A stretch of DNA of 20,000 nucleotides from an uncultured virus (IMG/VR IMGVR_UViG_3300003086_000045) (Duplodnaviria > Heunggongvirae > Uroviricota > Caudoviricetes > Demerecviridae), in IMG/VR virus record IMGVR_UViG_3300003086_000045, positions 57,902 through 77,901 of that record; one strand, given 5' to 3'. A program made the position numbers and the translations under genes. A model generated the notes under the pieces. The model had not been told where the DNA came from. It saw only the letters and a program-made list of their open reading frames with translations, and did not search any database. Positions 4,952 through 11,518 of the stretch are shown here, piece by piece (the stretch's first letter is position 1; each line of letters starts with the position of its first letter).

Positions 4952-5284
4952 TTATAACTGTTTTATAGTATCTAATAACTCTTTCAAAGCACCTTTACTT
5001 GATTTCTCTAGCCCTGAGAAAGCCGGTGTATCACCTAACATATCAATTACTGCTTCCTTAATTTTATTAATTATCTCAGTCTTGGTCTCAGGCTTATCTC
5101 CTGTTTTAGATATGTACTCTTCCTTCCTGTATACACCTTCCCTAGCTAGCTTACCTACTATCGATTTCGCAGATTTACCTAATGTTTTAGCTAGGTAGTT
5201 GACCGTAGTCATATTAGGGTCGCTAATATACTCATCTACTATTAACTTGGTCTGTTCTGGTGTATAGTTTATTTCTCGTGGCAT
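4952..5284 (-). CDS. T5 A2-like DNA-binding protein, paralog 1
   Basis: NYT..Y...LGKSAKSIVGKLAREGVY..SKTG..TK..LEKSSKGAL pattern shared with 4 other ORFs and, from recall, T5 A2. Confidence 0.7.
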   Translation of the reverse strand: MPREINYTPEQTKLIVDEYISDPNMTTVNYLAKTLGKSAKSIVGKLAREGVYRKEEYISKTGDKPETKTEIINKIKEAVIDMLGDTPAFSGLEKSSKGALKELLDTIKQL

Positions 5285-5306
5285 AATTTCTCCTATGTAA
5301 AACTAT

Positions 5307-5335
5307 ATTATACACCACTTAACCAATTTTGTCAA
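5307..5335 (-). promoter_or_regulatory. consensus sigma70 promoter (17-bp spacer)
   Basis: attata 5307-12, tgtcaa 5330-35. Confidence 0.85.
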
Positions 5336-5356
5336 GTTGTATTTACGACCGTGCAC

Positions 5357-5384
5357 AAAAAAGCCTCAAACTAATGAGGCTTTT
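5357..5384 (-). terminator. intrinsic terminator (probably bidirectional)
   Basis: aaaaaagcctca-aactaa-tgaggctttt. Confidence 0.75.
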
Positions 5385-5504
5385 GAACCAATTGGGGTGT
5401 TACCCCTCGTTGTTCAGGCTGGCTAAAAGGTCAAGTACACTAAAGTTAACCAAAAGGCAATATTTAGTATAAAAACCATACCTTTCTCAACTACTTTTAG
5501 CACA

Positions 5505-5648
5505 TTATTTCATTGACCCGTTAAGGCAACGCTTAGAATTAGGTTTACGTTTACAACGCTTAGCTCCGTGACTAAGTCTTTTCTTACTAATCTTATTGCC
5601 GTTGTTATCCTTTTTAAATGTCACAAATGGTATAGTGTCTTTGCTCAT
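5505..5648 (-). CDS. 47-aa highly basic peptide MSKDTIPFVTFKKDNNGNKISKKRLSHGAKRCKRKPNSKRCLNGSMK
   Basis: hand-translated; ATGA overlap with upstream A2-like gene; AGGAG RBS. Confidence 0.6.
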   Translation of the reverse strand: MSKDTIPFVTFKKDNNGNKISKKRLSHGAKRCKRKPNSKRCLNGSMK

Positions 5649-5986
5649 TTTCTCTCCTTTAATTCGTATTGGTTGTTCAAATCTCTTAGTAAGTCTACCA
5701 TTGCTTCTAGGTCTGCCTTAGAAGCGTTCTCAAAACTCTTAAATTGGTTATCTCTAGCATTCATCATAATTCTAATAACATTTACTAAGGCTGCTTTTTT
5801 AACAGCTATTGGTTTTGATGATGCTTTCTTCACTTTTTGATAAACTCCTTCTGTAGCCAACTTAGAAATGATTGACCTAACTGATTTTCCCATACCTGAT
5901 GCTAACTTCTCTACTGTTGCCTTAGTTGGTGTTTCACCATATGTTACTACCAACTCTTTTACTTGTTCTTTTGTATAATTTACCAT
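5645..5986 (-). CDS. T5 A2-like DNA-binding protein, paralog 2
   Basis: NYTKEQV..Y..PT...MGKSVRSIISKLATEGVYQK...SFENASKADL; GGAGG RBS. Confidence 0.7.
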   Translation of the reverse strand: MVNYTKEQVKELVVTYGETPTKATVEKLASGMGKSVRSIISKLATEGVYQKVKKASSKPIAVKKAALVNVIRIMMNARDNQFKSFENASKADLEAMVDLLRDLNNQYELKERK

Positions 5987-6036
5987 ATTTTACTTACCTC
6001 CTTAATATTCCATAAATTTTCTCTTTTTCAGAATAT

Positions 6037-6065
6037 ATTATACTGAATTTTCAACTAAATGTCAA
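6037..6065 (-). promoter_or_regulatory. consensus sigma70 promoter (17-bp spacer)
   Basis: attata 6037-42, tgtcaa 6060-65. Confidence 0.85.
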
Positions 6066-6322
6066 GTCTTATTTTAGTAAATGTACCAAATAACCAAAGC
6101 CCAAAGGGTTGCTAATATAAAACCACATATAAATGCTTGTACTGTTGGTTCATGCTTAACCACGGTTTGACTCGTCTAGAATTGCTGTTAGTTGTCTGTT
6201 TAACTTGTTGAATTTAAACTCCCACTTTCTGCTTTCTAGACGTTTTTCCTCATACTTTTCTTCCCAGTCAACTCTTGGGTTAACTCTAAATAGTTTTTGT
6301 ACGTTAGCTTTCCATTCTTTCA

Positions 6323-6700
6323 TTAGTTATCTCCTGTATAGTATAATTCGTTTAAATCTATGTTACGAGCAAAGAATGATTCCATCTTAGCACCTAGTAC
6401 AAAGTCTACTAAATCCTCATCAACTGCTTTAGCAACATTAGGGCTATTCCATATTGCCATTGCTACATCTTCACCTTGGTAATTTCTAAACTGCCCCCAG
6501 TTATCACCAGTGGCTAACTCTAGTTTTAATTGTAGCTCATTTAACTTATCTGAACCTTCTTCTTCGAAGTCTCCTCTGTTAACTTCATAGTCAACACTTC
6601 CTGACTCTTGCTCAATAGCTCCAAATTGTAGCCCAGCATCTGTTGGCTGACAAGCAAATCCAAACTTACCCTCAATATCTCCATAGTAATATCTTCCCAT
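6323..6700 (-). CDS. hypothetical acidic phage protein (MGRYYYGDIEGKFGF)
   Basis: 125-aa ORF; GAGGAG RBS. Confidence 0.75.
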   Translation of the reverse strand: MGRYYYGDIEGKFGFACQPTDAGLQFGAIEQESGSVDYEVNRGDFEEEGSDKLNELQLKLELATGDNWGQFRNYQGEDVAMAIWNSPNVAKAVDEDLVDFVLGAKMESFFARNIDLNELYYTGDN

Positions 6701-6820
6701 CTTAAACTCCTCTTCTTTGTTTGTTATATTCCGTTTCCTTAGGTTCGAACTTATGTTGTATTACGATTGCTCCTACTACAAATATTAACCACCCTACTAC
6801 TATTGTTGCTACTATTCCCA

Positions 6821-7000
6821 TTATACTCCTTCAAATTCAACATTAGACACTAATAAAACCTCTCTGTTTGCGTATAGTCTTTTTGCTAATTCAAAGGCAT
6901 CTTCCTCTGTTTTAGCAATAACATACTCAGTACTAGAGAAGGTATGCTCCGGTTTTAGAACTACTTTATATACTTTTTTATTTTCTTTTTCAATTTTCAT
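6821..7000 (-). CDS. small hypothetical protein; likely start MKIEKENKK (possibly leaderless)
   Basis: ORF track 6821..7036 begins inside the promoter; ATG at 7000 lies ~7 nt past the -10 box. Confidence 0.55.
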   Translation of the reverse strand: MKIEKENKKVYKVVLKPEHTFSSTEYVIAKTEEDAFELAKRLYANREVLLVSNVEFEGV

Positions 7001-7007
7001 AATGTAT

Positions 7008-7036
7008 ATTATACTGAAAAATAACCGGATTGTCAA
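7008..7036 (-). promoter_or_regulatory. consensus sigma70 promoter; near-duplicate of 7848-7876
   Basis: atgtatattatactgaaaa-N10-tgtcaagacattttttaa present at both loci. Confidence 0.85.
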
Positions 7037-7295
7037 GACATTTTTTAAGAAAGAGGTAAAATAAAGCAGAAAACATACTTTAACTCCGGGGGTTGCACCC
7101 GTAACTGGCCGGTGTTATTCCCATTTGGTCCCAATTTCGGCAAATTGTCGTCGTTAGAGCACTATATCGTCGCTTTACTACTGTTTTCCCCTGTTTTCGC
7201 CAAATTGCTCATTATTGAGCTTGACTGGGCGAAATTGGGGCAAGTTGGGCCAATTTGGTGAATATTCTAAAAACTTTTTAACTTTCATATAATTG

Positions 7296-7324
7296 TTGAC
7301 AATTTGCTCAACTTCATGTATAAT
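7296..7324 (+). promoter_or_regulatory. consensus sigma70 promoter into non-coding DNA
   Basis: ttgaca 7296-7301, N17, tataat 7319-24. Confidence 0.8.
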
Positions 7325-7432
7325 ATATATTATAATCGGGAATCTGTCTGGCCGGACGGCGCCCACAACAAAAATAGTCGTCGGTCTACTACTTGTCGGT
7401 CGGCGCTTAAGCGCTGCTTTTCTGTGGGCGAT

Positions 7433-7452
7433 AAAAAACCCCTTGCGGGGTT
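7433..7452 (-). terminator. intrinsic terminator of A2-like paralog 3
   Basis: minus strand AACCCC-GCAA-GGGGTTTTTT. Confidence 0.85.
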
Positions 7453-7457
7453 AATTA

Positions 7458-7778
7458 TTAGCCTAGAGCCTTAACTAACGTTTGGAGGTCTTGCTTCGTA
7501 GCCTTGGCTAATGACTCTACCGAGTCAACGCCCACCTTTTCAGCAATTTGAGCAACTAATTGCGCTTTAGTAATTACAGCCTCACCTGTCTTAGTCACAC
7601 GCTTCTCAGCTTCGTACACACCTTCACGAGATAGCTTAGCAATAATAGAGCGTGTTGTCTTGCCGAACTTCTCAGCAATGGTTGCCACCACCATTTTGTT
7701 ATCTCCTTCCTTAGCCTCGTAGATAGCGATCATTTCAGCAGTTTGGTCATCAGTGTAGTTTTTTGTCTTGTCAGTCAT
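7458..7778 (-). CDS. T5 A2-like DNA-binding protein, paralog 3
   Basis: NYTDDQT..Y...FGKTTRSIIAKLSREGVY..TKTG..TKAQLV..SLAKATKQDL; AGGAG RBS. Confidence 0.72.
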   Translation of the reverse strand: MTDKTKNYTDDQTAEMIAIYEAKEGDNKMVVATIAEKFGKTTRSIIAKLSREGVYEAEKRVTKTGEAVITKAQLVAQIAEKVGVDSVESLAKATKQDLQTLVKALG

Positions 7779-7847
7779 TTATTTCTCCTATGGGTTATTT
7801 TTATGGTTATTTCTTCTTTTCTTTTCTTTCTCAATCTTTATATGTAT

Positions 7848-7876
7848 ATTATACTGAAAATTGGGCAAATTGTCAA
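7848..7876 (-). promoter_or_regulatory. consensus sigma70 promoter (17-bp spacer)
   Basis: attata 7848-53, tgtcaa 7871-76. Confidence 0.85.
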
Positions 7877-7934
7877 GACATTTTTTAAAGAAATGCTTAA
7901 TTAAACTAAATTCAACCTAATCCACAAATAACAC

Positions 7935-7963
7935 TTGACAAAATCGTCCGCACACTGTATAAT
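7935..7963 (+). promoter_or_regulatory. consensus sigma70 promoter with GC-rich discriminator (cggcgcc)
   Basis: ttgaca 7935-40, N17, tataat 7958-63. Confidence 0.8.
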
Positions 7964-8120
7964 CGGCGCCTTCGCACCACTAAAAAAGTCGTTGCTCCAC
8001 TACTCCCTCCGGCGCCTATAGAGCACTTAAAAAAGTCGTTACTCTACTACTTGCCTGCCGGCGCAGGGGCGCTGAACATATGGTTCAATATTGCCCCTAT
8101 TATTTGTGTGGGAAAAAGCC

Positions 8121-8148
8121 TTGACAAAGTGGTGTAATAGTGTATAAT
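8121..8148 (+). promoter_or_regulatory. sigma70 promoter (16-bp spacer) into non-coding DNA
   Basis: ttgaca 8121-26, tataat 8143-48. Confidence 0.75.
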
Positions 8149-8191
8149 ATGTGGTATGGTGGGAGATCCGACCAAGTGGCCGCCGGCGCAG

Positions 8192-8216
8192 CCAAATGAG
8201 AATCATTCTCATTTGG
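8192..8216. promoter_or_regulatory. Fur-box-like perfect palindrome CCAAATGAGAATCATTCTCATTTGG
   Basis: 12-1-12 inverted repeat; core AATGAGAATCATTCTCATT fits the gammaproteobacterial Fur consensus AATGA(T/G)AATNATT(A/C)TCATT. Confidence 0.75.
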
Positions 8217-8222
8217 AGGTTT

Positions 8223-8241
8223 GGGGCATATTGCCCCTTTT
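8223..8241 (+). terminator. intrinsic terminator ggggca-tat-tgcccc-tttt
   Basis: GC stem with U tract on the + strand; abuts stop of paralog 4. Confidence 0.65.
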
Positions 8242-8243
8242 AT

Positions 8244-8561
8244 TTAAAGGTTATTAAACAGAAATTCCAAATCGCTCTTGGTGGCTTTCACCAAGGAGGA
8301 TATTGAGCTGAAATTCATAGATTGTTTTTCGGCAATCTTTTTAACCAAATCTTCTTTGGTGATAACAGGCAACCCCGATTTCGTTGTACGTTCCTTTTTC
8401 TGGTAAACGCCCTCTCTGGACAATTTAGCAATTAAAGACCTAGAAGATTTACCCGTACTATCAGCAAGGTCATTAACCGTTACCATTGTAGGATTTGCTG
8501 AATATTCCGCGATGATTTTAGCAGTTAATTCTTTAGAGTAGTTTTTATTTTTATCAGTCAT
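8244..8561 (-). CDS. T5 A2-like DNA-binding protein, paralog 4
   Basis: NYSKEL..YSANPTM..TGKSSRSLIAKLSREGVYQKK..TKSG..TKEDLV..SLVKATKSDL; GGAGG RBS. Confidence 0.72.
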   Translation of the reverse strand: MTDKNKNYSKELTAKIIAEYSANPTMVTVNDLADSTGKSSRSLIAKLSREGVYQKKERTTKSGLPVITKEDLVKKIAEKQSMNFSSISSLVKATKSDLEFLFNNL

Positions 8562-8609
8562 ATTGACCTCCCTTATTAGGTTAAGATTATTCTCAACCTT
8601 TATGTATAC

Positions 8610-8637
8610 ATTATATCATATTATATGAGTATGTCAA
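8610..8637 (-). promoter_or_regulatory. sigma70 promoter (16-bp spacer)
   Basis: attata 8610-15, tgtcaa 8632-37. Confidence 0.75.
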
Positions 8638-8673
8638 GCCTTTTTACCCCCTTTCTTTATGTGGGTATATGTA

Positions 8674-8702
8674 TTGACATTGTGTGCGTGGTAGTGTATA
8701 AT
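8674..8702 (+). promoter_or_regulatory. consensus sigma70 promoter with GC-rich discriminator, antisense to the exonuclease gene
   Basis: ttgaca 8674-79, N17, tataat 8697-8702, then tggcgcc. Confidence 0.8.
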
Positions 8703-8712
8703 TGGCGCCGCA

Positions 8713-8731
8713 AATGAGAATCATTCTCATT
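8713..8731. promoter_or_regulatory. Fur-box-like perfect palindrome AATGAGAATCATTCTCATT (second copy)
   Basis: identical 19-mer to 8195-8213; 10 bp downstream of the -10 box. Confidence 0.75.
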
Positions 8732-8743
8732 CGCATCGGGCGT

Positions 8744-9418
8744 CTAGGCTTTCGCCTGAGCCAATCTCCAAGGGCTACCGAATGGTTGGTTCAAAGGTTT
8801 CTTTACCCTTCTTTTTAGTAAGGTCTTTGCGATGTCTGCTTCGATATAACAATCATCAAGGGCAGTGTGGCTTTCTACAAAGTTAGGCAAATTGTGTAGA
8901 TAAGAAAAAGAAACTTCGGCTGATGTTTTTACATTACCTGCTTTAGTTATCATGCCATTAGCAGTAGCATATTTATGATATTTCTTTTTACTCAATAATG
9001 ATTGGCATGACCATAACCACAAATCCAGTGTGTCTTTAGTTTCTTCTAAAAAAGTATCATGCTTAGAGTATTTCTTTTGTGTTGCTTTAATCGCTCTCGT
9101 ATCAAAGCCAAGATTATATGCTGATACAATTTCGACATTATGCTCTTTAAATAAAGCATTGACATCACCTCGAATAGTATCCCAAGGTCGTATTCTCATG
9201 CTATCCATTAGCATAGAGTAATAACATTCAATCTTTTTAGAATAGTAAGCAGTTGCCATATGTTTAGGAATAAATACCTCTTTTACAAGACTTTCATATT
9301 CTGCTACAATCTCGCCTTTTTGTGTCATAATGACAACACCAAAATCATATATTTTCAAATCGCCAAATCCACCTGCTGTTTCTGTATCAATAATTGCTAT
9401 GTTTTTTATCTTTCCCAT
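8744..9418 (-). CDS. DEDDh 3'-5' exonuclease (DnaQ/RNase T-like)
   Basis: ExoI IIDTETAG, ExoII AYNLGFD, ExoIII HTALDD. Confidence 0.88.
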   Translation of the reverse strand: MGKIKNIAIIDTETAGGFGDLKIYDFGVVIMTQKGEIVAEYESLVKEVFIPKHMATAYYSKKIECYYSMLMDSMRIRPWDTIRGDVNALFKEHNVEIVSAYNLGFDTRAIKATQKKYSKHDTFLEETKDTLDLWLWSCQSLLSKKKYHKYATANGMITKAGNVKTSAEVSFSYLHNLPNFVESHTALDDCYIEADIAKTLLKRRVKKPLNQPFGSPWRLAQAKA

Positions 9419-9452
9419 TTTTTATCCTCTTTTTGTTGTTGTGTAAGTATAT

Positions 9453-9480
9453 ATTATAACAGGCTTTCGCCCTTTGTCAA
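9453..9480 (-). promoter_or_regulatory. sigma70 promoter (16-bp spacer) for the exonuclease
   Basis: attata 9453-58, tgtcaa 9475-80. Confidence 0.75.
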
Positions 9481-9484
9481 GTCT

Positions 9485-9736
9485 TTATAGCATAATAGTT
9501 GCTAATAAAATTCCGTTTCCAACCAAGCCGACAACATTACCAACTGTATATAATGTGTCATTAGTTGCTATTGACCTTACTAAGTATAGGGTTAATCCTA
9601 TCATAGTTAAAAGTATAGTTCCCATTGGAGTAGTTTCGCCATTCTCAAGAGATGACATAATCGCTGGAACGGAATTAAATTGTAAGCAACCTAATCCAAC
9701 CCAACCCATAATTTCTGCTGTTTTCTTGTTTAACAT
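9485..9736 (-). CDS. 3-TM membrane protein, SemiSWEET/PQ-loop-like
   Basis: 83 aa; GWVG...VPAI after TM1, IGLTLYLV TM2, ND loop, GN in TM3 resemble the SemiSWEET layout. Confidence 0.6.
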   Translation of the reverse strand: MLNKKTAEIMGWVGLGCLQFNSVPAIMSSLENGETTPMGTILLTMIGLTLYLVRSIATNDTLYTVGNVVGLVGNGILLATIML

Positions 9737-9787
9737 TAGTATTTCCTTATATAGTAGAAAGAAGTATTTCTTTCTTTGTATGTGTCT

Positions 9788-9815
9788 ATTATATCAGATT
9801 AATTCATCGTGTCAA
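9788..9815 (-). promoter_or_regulatory. sigma70 promoter (16-bp spacer)
   Basis: attata 9788-93, tgtcaa 9810-15. Confidence 0.75.
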
Positions 9816-9881
9816 GTATATATCGTGTTTATTTCGTAAATAAATGCTATTAATCCCCCTTAATAATTGTGGGTATTTTCC

Positions 9882-9910
9882 TTGACATTGTGTGCCTTGT
9901 ATGGTAAAAT
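9882..9910 (+). promoter_or_regulatory. sigma70 promoter TTGACA-N17-TAAAAT with cggcgc discriminator
   Basis: ttgaca 9882-87, taaaat 9905-10; shares ttgacattgtgtgc with the 8674 promoter. Confidence 0.75.
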
Positions 9911-9978
9911 CGGCGCAGACCTATATAAGTATATTATAATGTTCTAATATGCCCGCGGTGCGGTTTTGTGTGGGCGAT

Positions 9979-9999
9979 AAAAAACCCCTTTCGGGGTTT
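9979..9999 (-). terminator. intrinsic terminator of A2-like paralog 5
   Basis: minus strand AAACCCC-GAAA-GGGGTTTTTT; near-identical context to 7423-7452. Confidence 0.85.
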
Positions 10000-10011
10000 G
10001 GGTTTATCTCC

Positions 10012-10335
10012 CTATGTAATTGCAGTTAAAAGTGTTTGTAAGGCATATTTAGAAGCCTTAGTAAGCGAGGAGATTGAAGCCTCATCTACATCAGCCTTTG
10101 CTGATATTAGTTTAACAATATCAGCCTTAGTCTGAACAACAGCACCAGATTTTGTAGTGCGTGCCTTCTTTTTATATACGCCTTCCTTAGATAGTTTAGC
10201 GATTAAAGAGCGAACAGTCTTACCCGTAGTTTCAGCAAGGTCATTAACCGTTGCCATAGTTGGGTTAGCAGTATAGTCCGCAATGATTAGTTTAACCATT
10301 TCATCAGAGTAGTTCTTAGTAGTAGTAGTAGCCAT
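10012..10335 (-). CDS. T5 A2-like DNA-binding protein, paralog 5
   Basis: NYSDEMV..YTANPTM..TGKTVRSLIAKLSKEGVYKKK..TKSG..TKADIV..SLTKASKYAL. Confidence 0.72.
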   Translation of the reverse strand: MATTTTKNYSDEMVKLIIADYTANPTMATVNDLAETTGKTVRSLIAKLSKEGVYKKKARTTKSGAVVQTKADIVKLISAKADVDEASISSLTKASKYALQTLLTAIT

Positions 10336-10392
10336 ATTATGGTATCCTTATATAGTTATGGGTTTTGCGATATTGCTCAACCTCTAAAGACC

Positions 10393-10420
10393 ATTATACA
10401 GAAGCCTCAGAATAAGTCAA
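10393..10420 (-). promoter_or_regulatory. sigma70 promoter TTGACT-N16-TATAAT
   Basis: attata 10393-98, agtcaa 10415-20. Confidence 0.7.
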
Positions 10421-10598
10421 GCCTTTTATCACATTTAATTTAACTATTAGTATATCATAATATTATAATATAGGATAGGGGGCTAAGTAGACTTGCTGAA
10501 GTGCCTATCGCCCAGCGCCCCCCTCCATGTACTACTTACAAGAAAACCAAAAACGACTAACGGCGTATAGCAAAAAATAGCGATGCATAAAATAACTC

Positions 10599-10627
10599 TT
10601 GACAATTTCCCCAAAACTGGGTATAAT
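10599..10627 (+). promoter_or_regulatory. consensus sigma70 promoter
   Basis: ttgaca 10599-604, N17, tataat 10622-27. Confidence 0.85.
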
Positions 10628-10639
10628 ATAGAATATACA

Positions 10640-10709
10640 AAATTGAAAAACCAATATTGAAAATCCAATATTGTAAATTGAAAAACCAATATTGAAAATC
10701 CAATATTGT
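10640..10709. repeat. perfect 35-bp tandem duplication containing four CAATATTG palindromes
   Basis: aaattgaaaaaccaatattgaaaatccaatattgt at 10640-74 and 10675-709. Confidence 0.95.
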
Positions 10710-10722
10710 AAAAAGGAGATAT

Positions 10723-11059: not shown

Positions 11060-11518
11060 ATGCAAGAAACAAAGTTAGTTGCGATCTCTCCTGAAGCACT
11101 TGAGGTTGCAAACTGTTACTTACAAACTACTTCAGTAGATGATACTGCCAGCCGTTTAGGTATAGAAAAACAAGCCGTGACACAGTATTTACAAAAACGT
11201 GAGGTGAAAACCTATATTGACAACGTCTACATGGATATTGGGTATAGAAACAGGTTCACTTTAGCCTCAGCTCTTGACAAGGTCATAGAAGCGAAGCTAG
11301 AGGAAATGGATGAAACTGAAATGGGTTCCAATAAAGATATTGCGGACCTACTTGCTTTAGCGCACAAAATGCGTATGGACGAAGTAAAATGCGACATAGA
11401 CTCTAGGAAAGCTGAAGCAACACAAATACGAAACCAAACTAATGTACAGATAAATGATTCTGGGTTTGGTAAAGGCAATTACGGTAGCTTAATGAAAAAG
11501 CTACTTACATCAGAATGA
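11060..11518 (+). CDS. terS: T5-like terminase small subunit
   Basis: SPE..V...YLQ, EVKxY, GYRNR, LD.VI..KLEE..ET.MGS..DI.D.L..AHKM.M, NQTN.Q.N match T5 TerS as recalled. Confidence 0.8.
   Translation: MQETKLVAISPEALEVANCYLQTTSVDDTASRLGIEKQAVTQYLQKREVKTYIDNVYMDIGYRNRFTLASALDKVIEAKLEEMDETEMGSNKDIADLLALAHKMRMDEVKCDIDSRKAEATQIRNQTNVQINDSGFGKGNYGSLMKKLLTSE

Follow-up and report, generated by a model that had tools for sequence, protein, structure and literature searches.

The window analysed here is a stretch of 20,000 nucleotides that forms the last 20 kb (positions 57,902 to 77,901) of the uncultured-virus record IMGVR_UViG_3300003086_000045, a single contig of 77,901 bp with 36% G+C that is probably partial. 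PHROG matches (D5-like regulator, split NAD ligase, SbcCD, primase, DnaB and polymerase), together with a polymerase 47.5% identical to those of the T5 group, mark the phage as a distant T5 relative. Its DNA is present in hydrothermal-vent and marine metagenomes from 13 studies, and megablast of positions 7000-10500 against GenBank phages gave no match. The terminase small-subunit gene lies at 11060-11518 and, downstream of it, the phage encodes a DsrA-like sulfite reductase, DsrC, TusA, IscU, ferredoxin, two IscA proteins, glutaredoxin and PhoH. Vent siphoviruses with the same gene set have been assigned to SUP05 hosts (Kieft et al., 2021; PMC8190135); in the portions of that paper available to us, Fur and promoters are never mentioned and phages are held to be unable themselves to sense sulfur compounds. 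The iron enzymes of the phage comprise NrdAB, several radical SAM proteins, a 2OG-Fe(II) oxygenase and IscU/IscA. Four radical SAM genes cluster with a tryptophan-halogenase-like gene beside the tail-fibre genes (L245 5567-10261; L246 3219-6039), and the 2OG-Fe(II) oxygenase gene sits among genes of nucleotide metabolism (L246 8102-8680).

Upstream of the terminase gene, the region 5300-10630 holds twelve sigma-70 promoters that match the consensus at 12/12 positions within about 5 kb, on alternating strands. Those on the - strand serve small genes, and those on the + strand (7296, 7935, 8121, 8674 and 9882) head short units with no credible ORF. Five paralogous genes of ~105-113 aa (4952-5284, 5645-5986, 7458-7778, 8244-8561 and 10012-10335), all on the - strand and each with its own consensus promoter, encode proteins 33-40% identical to the first of them. 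The paralog at 8244-8561, a small DNA-binding-like protein of 105 aa transcribed from a 12/12 promoter at 8610-8637 (- strand), is the gene flanked by the two palindromes described below. Its PHROG matches are weak and confined to D5-like and DNA-binding families, and BLASTP of this gene and its paralogs against T5 A2 found nothing, so that an earlier description of the flanked gene as an A2-like paralog holds as to its position and to its being a paralog, but not as to A2; the T5 D5-like regulator contains a domain to which the paralogs are related. A structure model (pLDDT 81.6) has an N-terminal three-helix bundle; it matched nothing in the PDB at E <= 0.001, and the weak rows at E 0.2-1, to helix-turn-helix/homeodomain proteins and metal-dependent repressors, are not interpreted.

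The palindrome is the 19-mer AATGAGAATCATTCTCATT, which occurs as two exact copies, at 8195-8213 (copy 1) and 8713-8731 (copy 2), spaced by 518 bp, as the sequence-only reading had reported for this early region. By chance 0.01 matches would be expected, and the observed count was reached in none of 200 shuffles; no third copy exists in the whole 77,901-bp record with up to 4 substitutions allowed. Both copies are also carried by L249 and L250, public assemblies that represent this phage independently (99.7-99.97% identical). A - strand gene has its 3' end just short of each copy. The Fur box is a 19-bp inverted repeat that can be written in 7-1-7 or 9-1-9 form, and AATGAGAATCATTCTCATT agrees with its textbook consensus at 17/19 positions of the 9-1-9 form and 13/15 of the 7-1-7 core, the mismatch being one symmetric T-to-G change. 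The 'perfect Fur box' of the sequence-only reading is thus perfect as a 9-1-9 palindrome but not as a match to the consensus. In copy 1 the palindrome extends to 12-nt arms (8192-8216), in copy 2 11 of the 12 positions pair, and the flanking bases that lengthen the pairing beyond the 19-mer differ between the two. A tiny ORF of 51 aa that spans copy 1 (8151-8306) is without support.

Each copy lies downstream of a 12/12 promoter on the + strand, in line with what had been read from the sequence, and the two are placed differently within their units. Promoter P8674 (8674-8702; TTGACA-17-TATAAT) has its -10 element at 8697-8702, followed by TGGCGCCGCA and then copy 2, which begins 11 nt past the -10; from this order copy 2 covers about +2/+4 to +22, a position expected of a repressor site. 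The GC-rich spacer TGGCGCC (8703-8709, + strand) between the -10 and copy 2 contains the GGCGC element of the cassette. The predicted transcript would run antisense into a convergent DnaQ-like exonuclease-family gene of 224 aa (8744-9418, - strand; phrog_20187, phrog_192), whose 3' end is 13 nt from copy 2, so that the placing of the second box at the predicted start site and antisense to the exonuclease is borne out. Promoter P8121 (8121-8148, + strand; -10 at 8143-8148) drives a unit of ~85 nt that holds copy 1: the box begins 47 nt after the -10, with a CGGCGC element (8184-8189, + strand) ending 5 nt ahead of it, and the unit ends at an intrinsic terminator hairpin GGGGCATATTGCCCC followed by a T run (8223-8237), a hairpin placed immediately beyond the stop codon of gene 8244-8561, which converges on the unit. 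Copy 1 is not in an operator position.

The small units were also compared with known RNAs. Rfam gave no match at gathering score and, at E <= 1, only a spurious lncRNA match (E 0.2); the search for tRNA genes was negative. A 14-nt identity shared by the copy 1 unit and the phage iscU was rejected, as the two are on one strand and a match of this length falls within chance in 78 kb of sequence. The RNA run X20, available as contigs only, covers just the exonuclease and 83-aa genes of diverged relatives, with no coverage at the boxes and no readable RNA start or end, and says nothing on expression.

Several repeated elements accompany these units. All four occurrences of GGCGCC and 7 of the 11 of CGGCGC in the 78-kb record fall in 7357-9911, and in 7357-9916 these motifs mostly stand right after a -10 or just ahead of a Fur box. 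A paralogous cassette at 9882-9916 (+ strand), 76% identical to 8647-8708, has the promoter and CGGCGC and no box. A direct repeat of ~35-45 nt (AAAAAAGTCGT...ACTACT...) occurs in three copies (7370-7406, 7981-8015 and 8028-8064), each ending in CGGCGC and lying inside the + strand non-coding units. In several cassettes a long AT-rich palindrome (...tatattagtatattataatattctaatata...) stands between two copies of CGGCGC (window 9917-9950; L257 around 215-250; L259 around 1440-1480; L251 around 270-310), and resembles either an insertion that duplicated its target or an additional regulatory site. A 14/21-nt spaced repeat, AAAATTGAAAAACCAATATTG, occurs in five overlapping copies at 10625-10722, in the interval that separates promoter P10599 from the first + strand gene (10723); these copies resemble iterons or operators. 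Population variants (run X7) join the DNA just after copy 1 (8216) to the terminator at 9966, skipping 1749 bp, and recombine the paralogous promoters at 8647 and 9855 (9854/8647 junction); the early cassettes are therefore shuffled in nature.

We compared the palindrome with bacterial sequences. The exact 19-mer was found at no fewer than 120 bacterial loci, against about 4 expected from our own arithmetic, which takes equal base use over 596 billion bases. For 80 bacterial loci with flanking DNA, the first ORF of 70 aa or more was taken on either side, and the resulting 127 ORFs were scanned against Pfam. A family of iron homeostasis adjoined the exact 19-mer at 31 of these loci (TonB-receptor plug at 12, FeoA at 8, FTR1 at 5, Fur at 3, and ferritin, hemP and an Fe2+ transporter at 1 each), or at 38 when FbpA-like or ZnuA-type binding proteins were added, the remainder having other neighbours or none. 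In E. coli K-12, 16 sites matched within 3 mismatches compared to 2 for the reversed control. The site 26 bp before gpmA differs from AATGAGAATCATTCTCATT at 1 position, that abutting the 5' end of the RyhB RNA and that before the prophage TonB-receptor gene yoeA at 2 each, and those of fecI and of nohD, a prophage packaging gene, at 3 each. The accessible part of Chen et al. (2007; PMC2189734) gives gel shifts for gpmA, ryhB, yoeA, nohA and oppA, lists fecI as footprinted, and has nohB (now annotated nohD) only as a predicted site of 25.3 bits. Two of the E. coli positions, NC_000913.3 580592 and 2068578, are strong Fur-type sites within cryptic prophages, one before the DLP12 packaging gene nohD and the other before the CP4-44 gene yoeA. 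The iron-gene neighbours in bacteria and the near-identity to the E. coli sites together make the assignment of AATGAGAATCATTCTCATT as a high-affinity Fur-type operator, which the sequence-only reading had taken as established, well supported by comparison, and Fur of this phage's host would presumably bind it.

The variation among related boxes bears on whether the palindrome acts as DNA or as RNA. Among 47 distinct instances, the variable dinucleotide of the half-sites is the same on both sides in 29 and different in 18, a symmetric fraction of 0.62 compared to 0.60 expected for independent half-sites, and a double, stem-preserving change was seen in one instance only. The half-sites vary independently, and these statistics, drawn from sequence comparison, hence argue that the palindrome is a site for a dimeric protein rather than an RNA stem. 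It had been suggested that homologues might keep the hairpin but not the sequence, as expected of an RNA stem or terminator; the relatives do the reverse, keeping the sequence and often breaking the hairpin.

The host is probably to be sought among vent sulfur-oxidising gammaproteobacteria, the phage DsrA-like protein being 90% and 81% identical to those of two gammaproteobacterial genomes, although the donor of a DsrA gene need not be the host. Each of these two genomes encodes one Fur. In one, an operon for an ABC ATPase and an FbpA-like protein (ferric-type ABC) is preceded at 15 bp by a perfect canonical box; the other has no more than two weak boxes forming a composite ahead of a porin-imelysin operon. 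The box pattern was not enriched over the reversed control in either genome, and in the closest one (G155) no site was found within 2 mismatches; since both genomes are AT-rich and small, we keep the non-enrichment as a caveat and not as a refutation.

Boxes of this kind recur in related phages. The exact 19-mer is present in at least 124 viral contigs and, among the matches listed, 17 contigs have genes for proteins related to the early proteins of the window (25-61% identity) and several boxes each, up to 7. An unbiased set was chosen through the terminase, as 80 of 487 loci encoding a relative of its small subunit (52-84% identity), and boxes were counted within 2 mismatches of three palindromic variants. 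These loci have 44 boxes in 271 kb upstream of the terminase gene and 0 in 506 kb downstream. Where at least 2.5 kb of upstream DNA was available, 18 of 39 loci have one or more boxes and 21 have none, including L252, whose terminase small subunit is 81% identical. In whole-record scans of five phages, the boxes are confined to one early stretch in each, with 0 matches in the reversed control. The paralogs of the flanked gene co-occur with boxes in the relatives.

The copy 2 module is present in L251, with a variant box, and in L262, and only the promoter plus box aligns between these and the window; with L259, which has a module homologous to that of copy 1, the whole copy 1 unit aligns. The RNA 3' of copy 2 is not conserved and so no conserved RNA product is evident. 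The layout of copy 2, with promoter, GGCGC and box in that order and a spacer of 8-15 nt, is repeated at about 13 other viral loci (15 cassettes), following the pattern TTGACA, 17-18 nt, TAtAAT, (C/T)GGCGC, 3-6 nt, box, with CGGTGC in L099. Of the 37 boxes in the unbiased set, 8 are located 3-20 nt past a strong -10, compared to 2.3% of control positions, and the other 29 do not adjoin a strong promoter by the criterion used. In 24 of the 47 instances a GGCGC stands ahead of the box with its end 2-9 nt away (mostly 4-5), versus 3.6% of controls; this motif may be a nick site, a GC-rich discriminator or something else. A terminator follows within 10-40 nt of many boxes in the relatives.

The proximity of the Fe-S and sulfur genes had suggested that the boxes and this cassette form one iron-sensing module. 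Across 34 related loci with enough flank on both sides, which are not phylogenetically independent and include some duplicates, 9 have both boxes and Fe-S/sulfur genes, 7 only boxes, 9 only the genes and 9 neither; this is random co-occurrence, T5 itself has boxes without such genes, and the data do not support a coupling between the boxes and the Fe-S cassette. In 18 of 34 related loci (L249-L328) the terminase small-subunit gene is followed by IscU and IscA genes, and Fe-S assembly genes are therefore a common trait of the lineage.

The most likely mechanism, in our view, is Fur-gated early transcription from P8674, with three live rivals taken up below. We give somewhat better than an even chance to the reading in which both palindromes are operators of the host's iron-loaded Fur, set in conserved early cassettes and gating transcription from P8674. 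When iron is plentiful, Fur-Fe2+ on copy 2 would block RNA polymerase at this promoter, and iron limitation would release the + strand non-coding transcript, antisense into the convergent exonuclease-like gene; at copy 1, 47 nt into a promoter-to-terminator unit, Fur might act as a roadblock or simply be docked. To the observed identity of the operator sequence, promoter geometry, conserved confinement to the early region and independently varying half-sites, this mechanism adds that host Fur would bind, that binding would gate these promoters, and what the transcripts might do. The promoter geometry of copy 2 fits the Fur-gated small or antisense RNAs of the sequence-only reading. Counting against this mechanism are the placing of copy 1, the 29 of 37 boxes in relatives that stand away from a strong promoter, the lack of a conserved RNA 3' of copy 2, the 21 of 39 loci devoid of boxes and the non-enrichment in the two putative host-lineage genomes. 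Overall, the sequence comparisons suggest that the phage reads the iron state of its host.

Among the rivals the best placed, though we judge it unlikely, is that the boxes have no transcriptional role and recruit host Fur to the first-entering or earliest-acting DNA, where Fur could pause, anchor or organise the incoming genome. This would match T5, whose annotated injection stop signal (9140-10149) contains five or more boxes. They occupy 9552-9720, immediately following DnaA boxes and shortly ahead of the major GCGC nick (9748), and two differ from the window's box at no more than 1 position. Each terminal repeat of a complete T5-type record holds four boxes. The GGCGC motif that precedes about half of the 47 instances fits the nick consensus of T5, Pu-GCGC (annotated in NC_005859); that most boxes in the relatives are not promoter-proximal points the same way. 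Against such docking, the window has two isolated copies flanking a gene and no array, its whole record contains 0 exact DnaA boxes, a terminal repeat and two-step injection are not established for this phage, and copy 2 and the boxes of the ~13 other loci sit precisely at promoter starts.

A second rival, which we hold to be improbable, is that replicating phage DNA titrates Fur and derepresses host iron uptake, which would supply the ribonucleotide reductase, radical SAM enzymes and Fe-S assembly of the phage. The site is of the high-affinity type, the phage encodes the iron enzymes listed above, 2OG-Fe(II) oxygenase included, and short promoter-to-terminator units with no protein product could serve as sinks. 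Two sites per genome are few for a decoy, however, the boxes of the relatives are unassociated with Fe-S/sulfur genes, and a decoy has no need of a fixed promoter spacing. Equally improbable to us is that a phage protein, either a helix-turn-helix-like paralog or the D5-like regulator, binds the palindrome, its likeness to a Fur box being mimicry or competition. The boxes flank a paralog gene and keep company with paralogs in the relatives, and the modelled three-helix bundle has DNA-binding domains as its weak structural neighbours, all at E > 0.1; the paralogs are candidates for a competing binder, although nothing ties them to the box. The identical 19-mer nevertheless serves iron genes in bacteria without this phage, and the variant half-sites are those found beside bacterial iron genes. 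In T5, which has the boxes, the paralog profile finds just weak matches, and these fall within a 268-aa early ORF far from the boxes. Least probable by some way is that the palindrome works as a stem-loop, as a 3'-end or stability element or part of a terminator, in the + strand short RNAs or the - strand mRNAs, since, even if an 11-bp stem folds in both predicted transcripts, flanks of different bases extend the pairing in the two copies and both boxes lie just past the end of a - strand gene, the exact sequence is conserved in unrelated phages and bacteria, the stem is broken in over a third of instances with no excess of compensatory pairs, it is AT-rich with no U run of its own, and it matches no Rfam family.

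A wider proposal can be put forward tentatively, as one that we think less likely to be right than wrong in its full extent: Fur operators would be found lineage-wide in T5-like phages, from T5 to the vent phages and always in the earliest-acting DNA, and the marine cassettes of promoter, GGCGC, Fur box and terminator would be iron-gated small-RNA genes with RyhB-like logic, or else combined sinks for RNA polymerase and Fur that re-program the host's iron economy. Since the neighbouring GGCGC agrees with the T5 nick consensus, boxes with Fur on them may also mark nicks or points where DNA entry pauses. Phages are usually thought to sense the nutrient state of the host only indirectly. If the proposed gating is correct, abundant vent phages would read host iron directly through a conserved Fur operator at the start of a strong early promoter, this capacity may be common to the whole T5 group, and the unexplained injection-stop repeats of T5 would gain a specific host protein to consider. 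At the same time, an attractive idea is corrected, as the boxes are not tied to the Fe-S/sulfur cassette.

Among known systems, Repeat Region 3 of T5, the repeat block of its injection stop signal with the DRE repeats (10.1101/866236), belongs to the same box family in the same phage group, and in both cases the boxes are restricted to non-coding DNA that acts early or enters first, with a GCGC-type motif nearby; T5, however, has a tandem array with DnaA boxes at the end of a terminal repeat, whereas the window has two single copies, one of them at a promoter start. The available text of Davison's study of 25 T5-like phages (10.1101/866236) describes the repeats and DnaA boxes and has 0 occurrences of Fur or iron, and our literature search on Fur in connection with T5-like phages, or with early promoters of phages, brought up nothing of relevance. 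What is new here is the distant marine branch, the single-copy, promoter-embedded form of the box and its lack of a tie to Fe-S genes.

With the E. coli operators of gpmA, ryhB, yoeA and fecI the window shares the 19-bp inverted repeat, but copy 2 is centred at about +13, behind a GC-rich GGCGC, whereas the bacterial sites usually overlap the -10 and, unlike bacterial Fur operators, the window's boxes are in a virulent-type phage with no iron gene downstream. The copy 1 unit, short, non-coding, under a strong promoter and closed by an intrinsic terminator, resembles the Fur-repressed small RNA genes of RyhB and PrrF, in which a Fur box controls a strong promoter of a short non-coding unit, and differs from them in that the window's units have no Rfam match and that the transcript is not conserved beyond the box. 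As in cyanophages, which carry PhoB and NtcA boxes, a phage region here appears to be wired to a nutrient regulator of the host. Other phage and prophage examples, in the parts of the reports available, are the Fur box before sitABCD in lambdoid coliphages (PMC6969025) and the Fur sites that precede nohA/nohB, packaging genes of cryptic prophages (PMC2189734). Such boxes have cargo genes under their control or belong to temperate phages; the boxes of the window, by contrast, stand in the early regulatory region of a T5-like phage of lytic type, before no protein gene.
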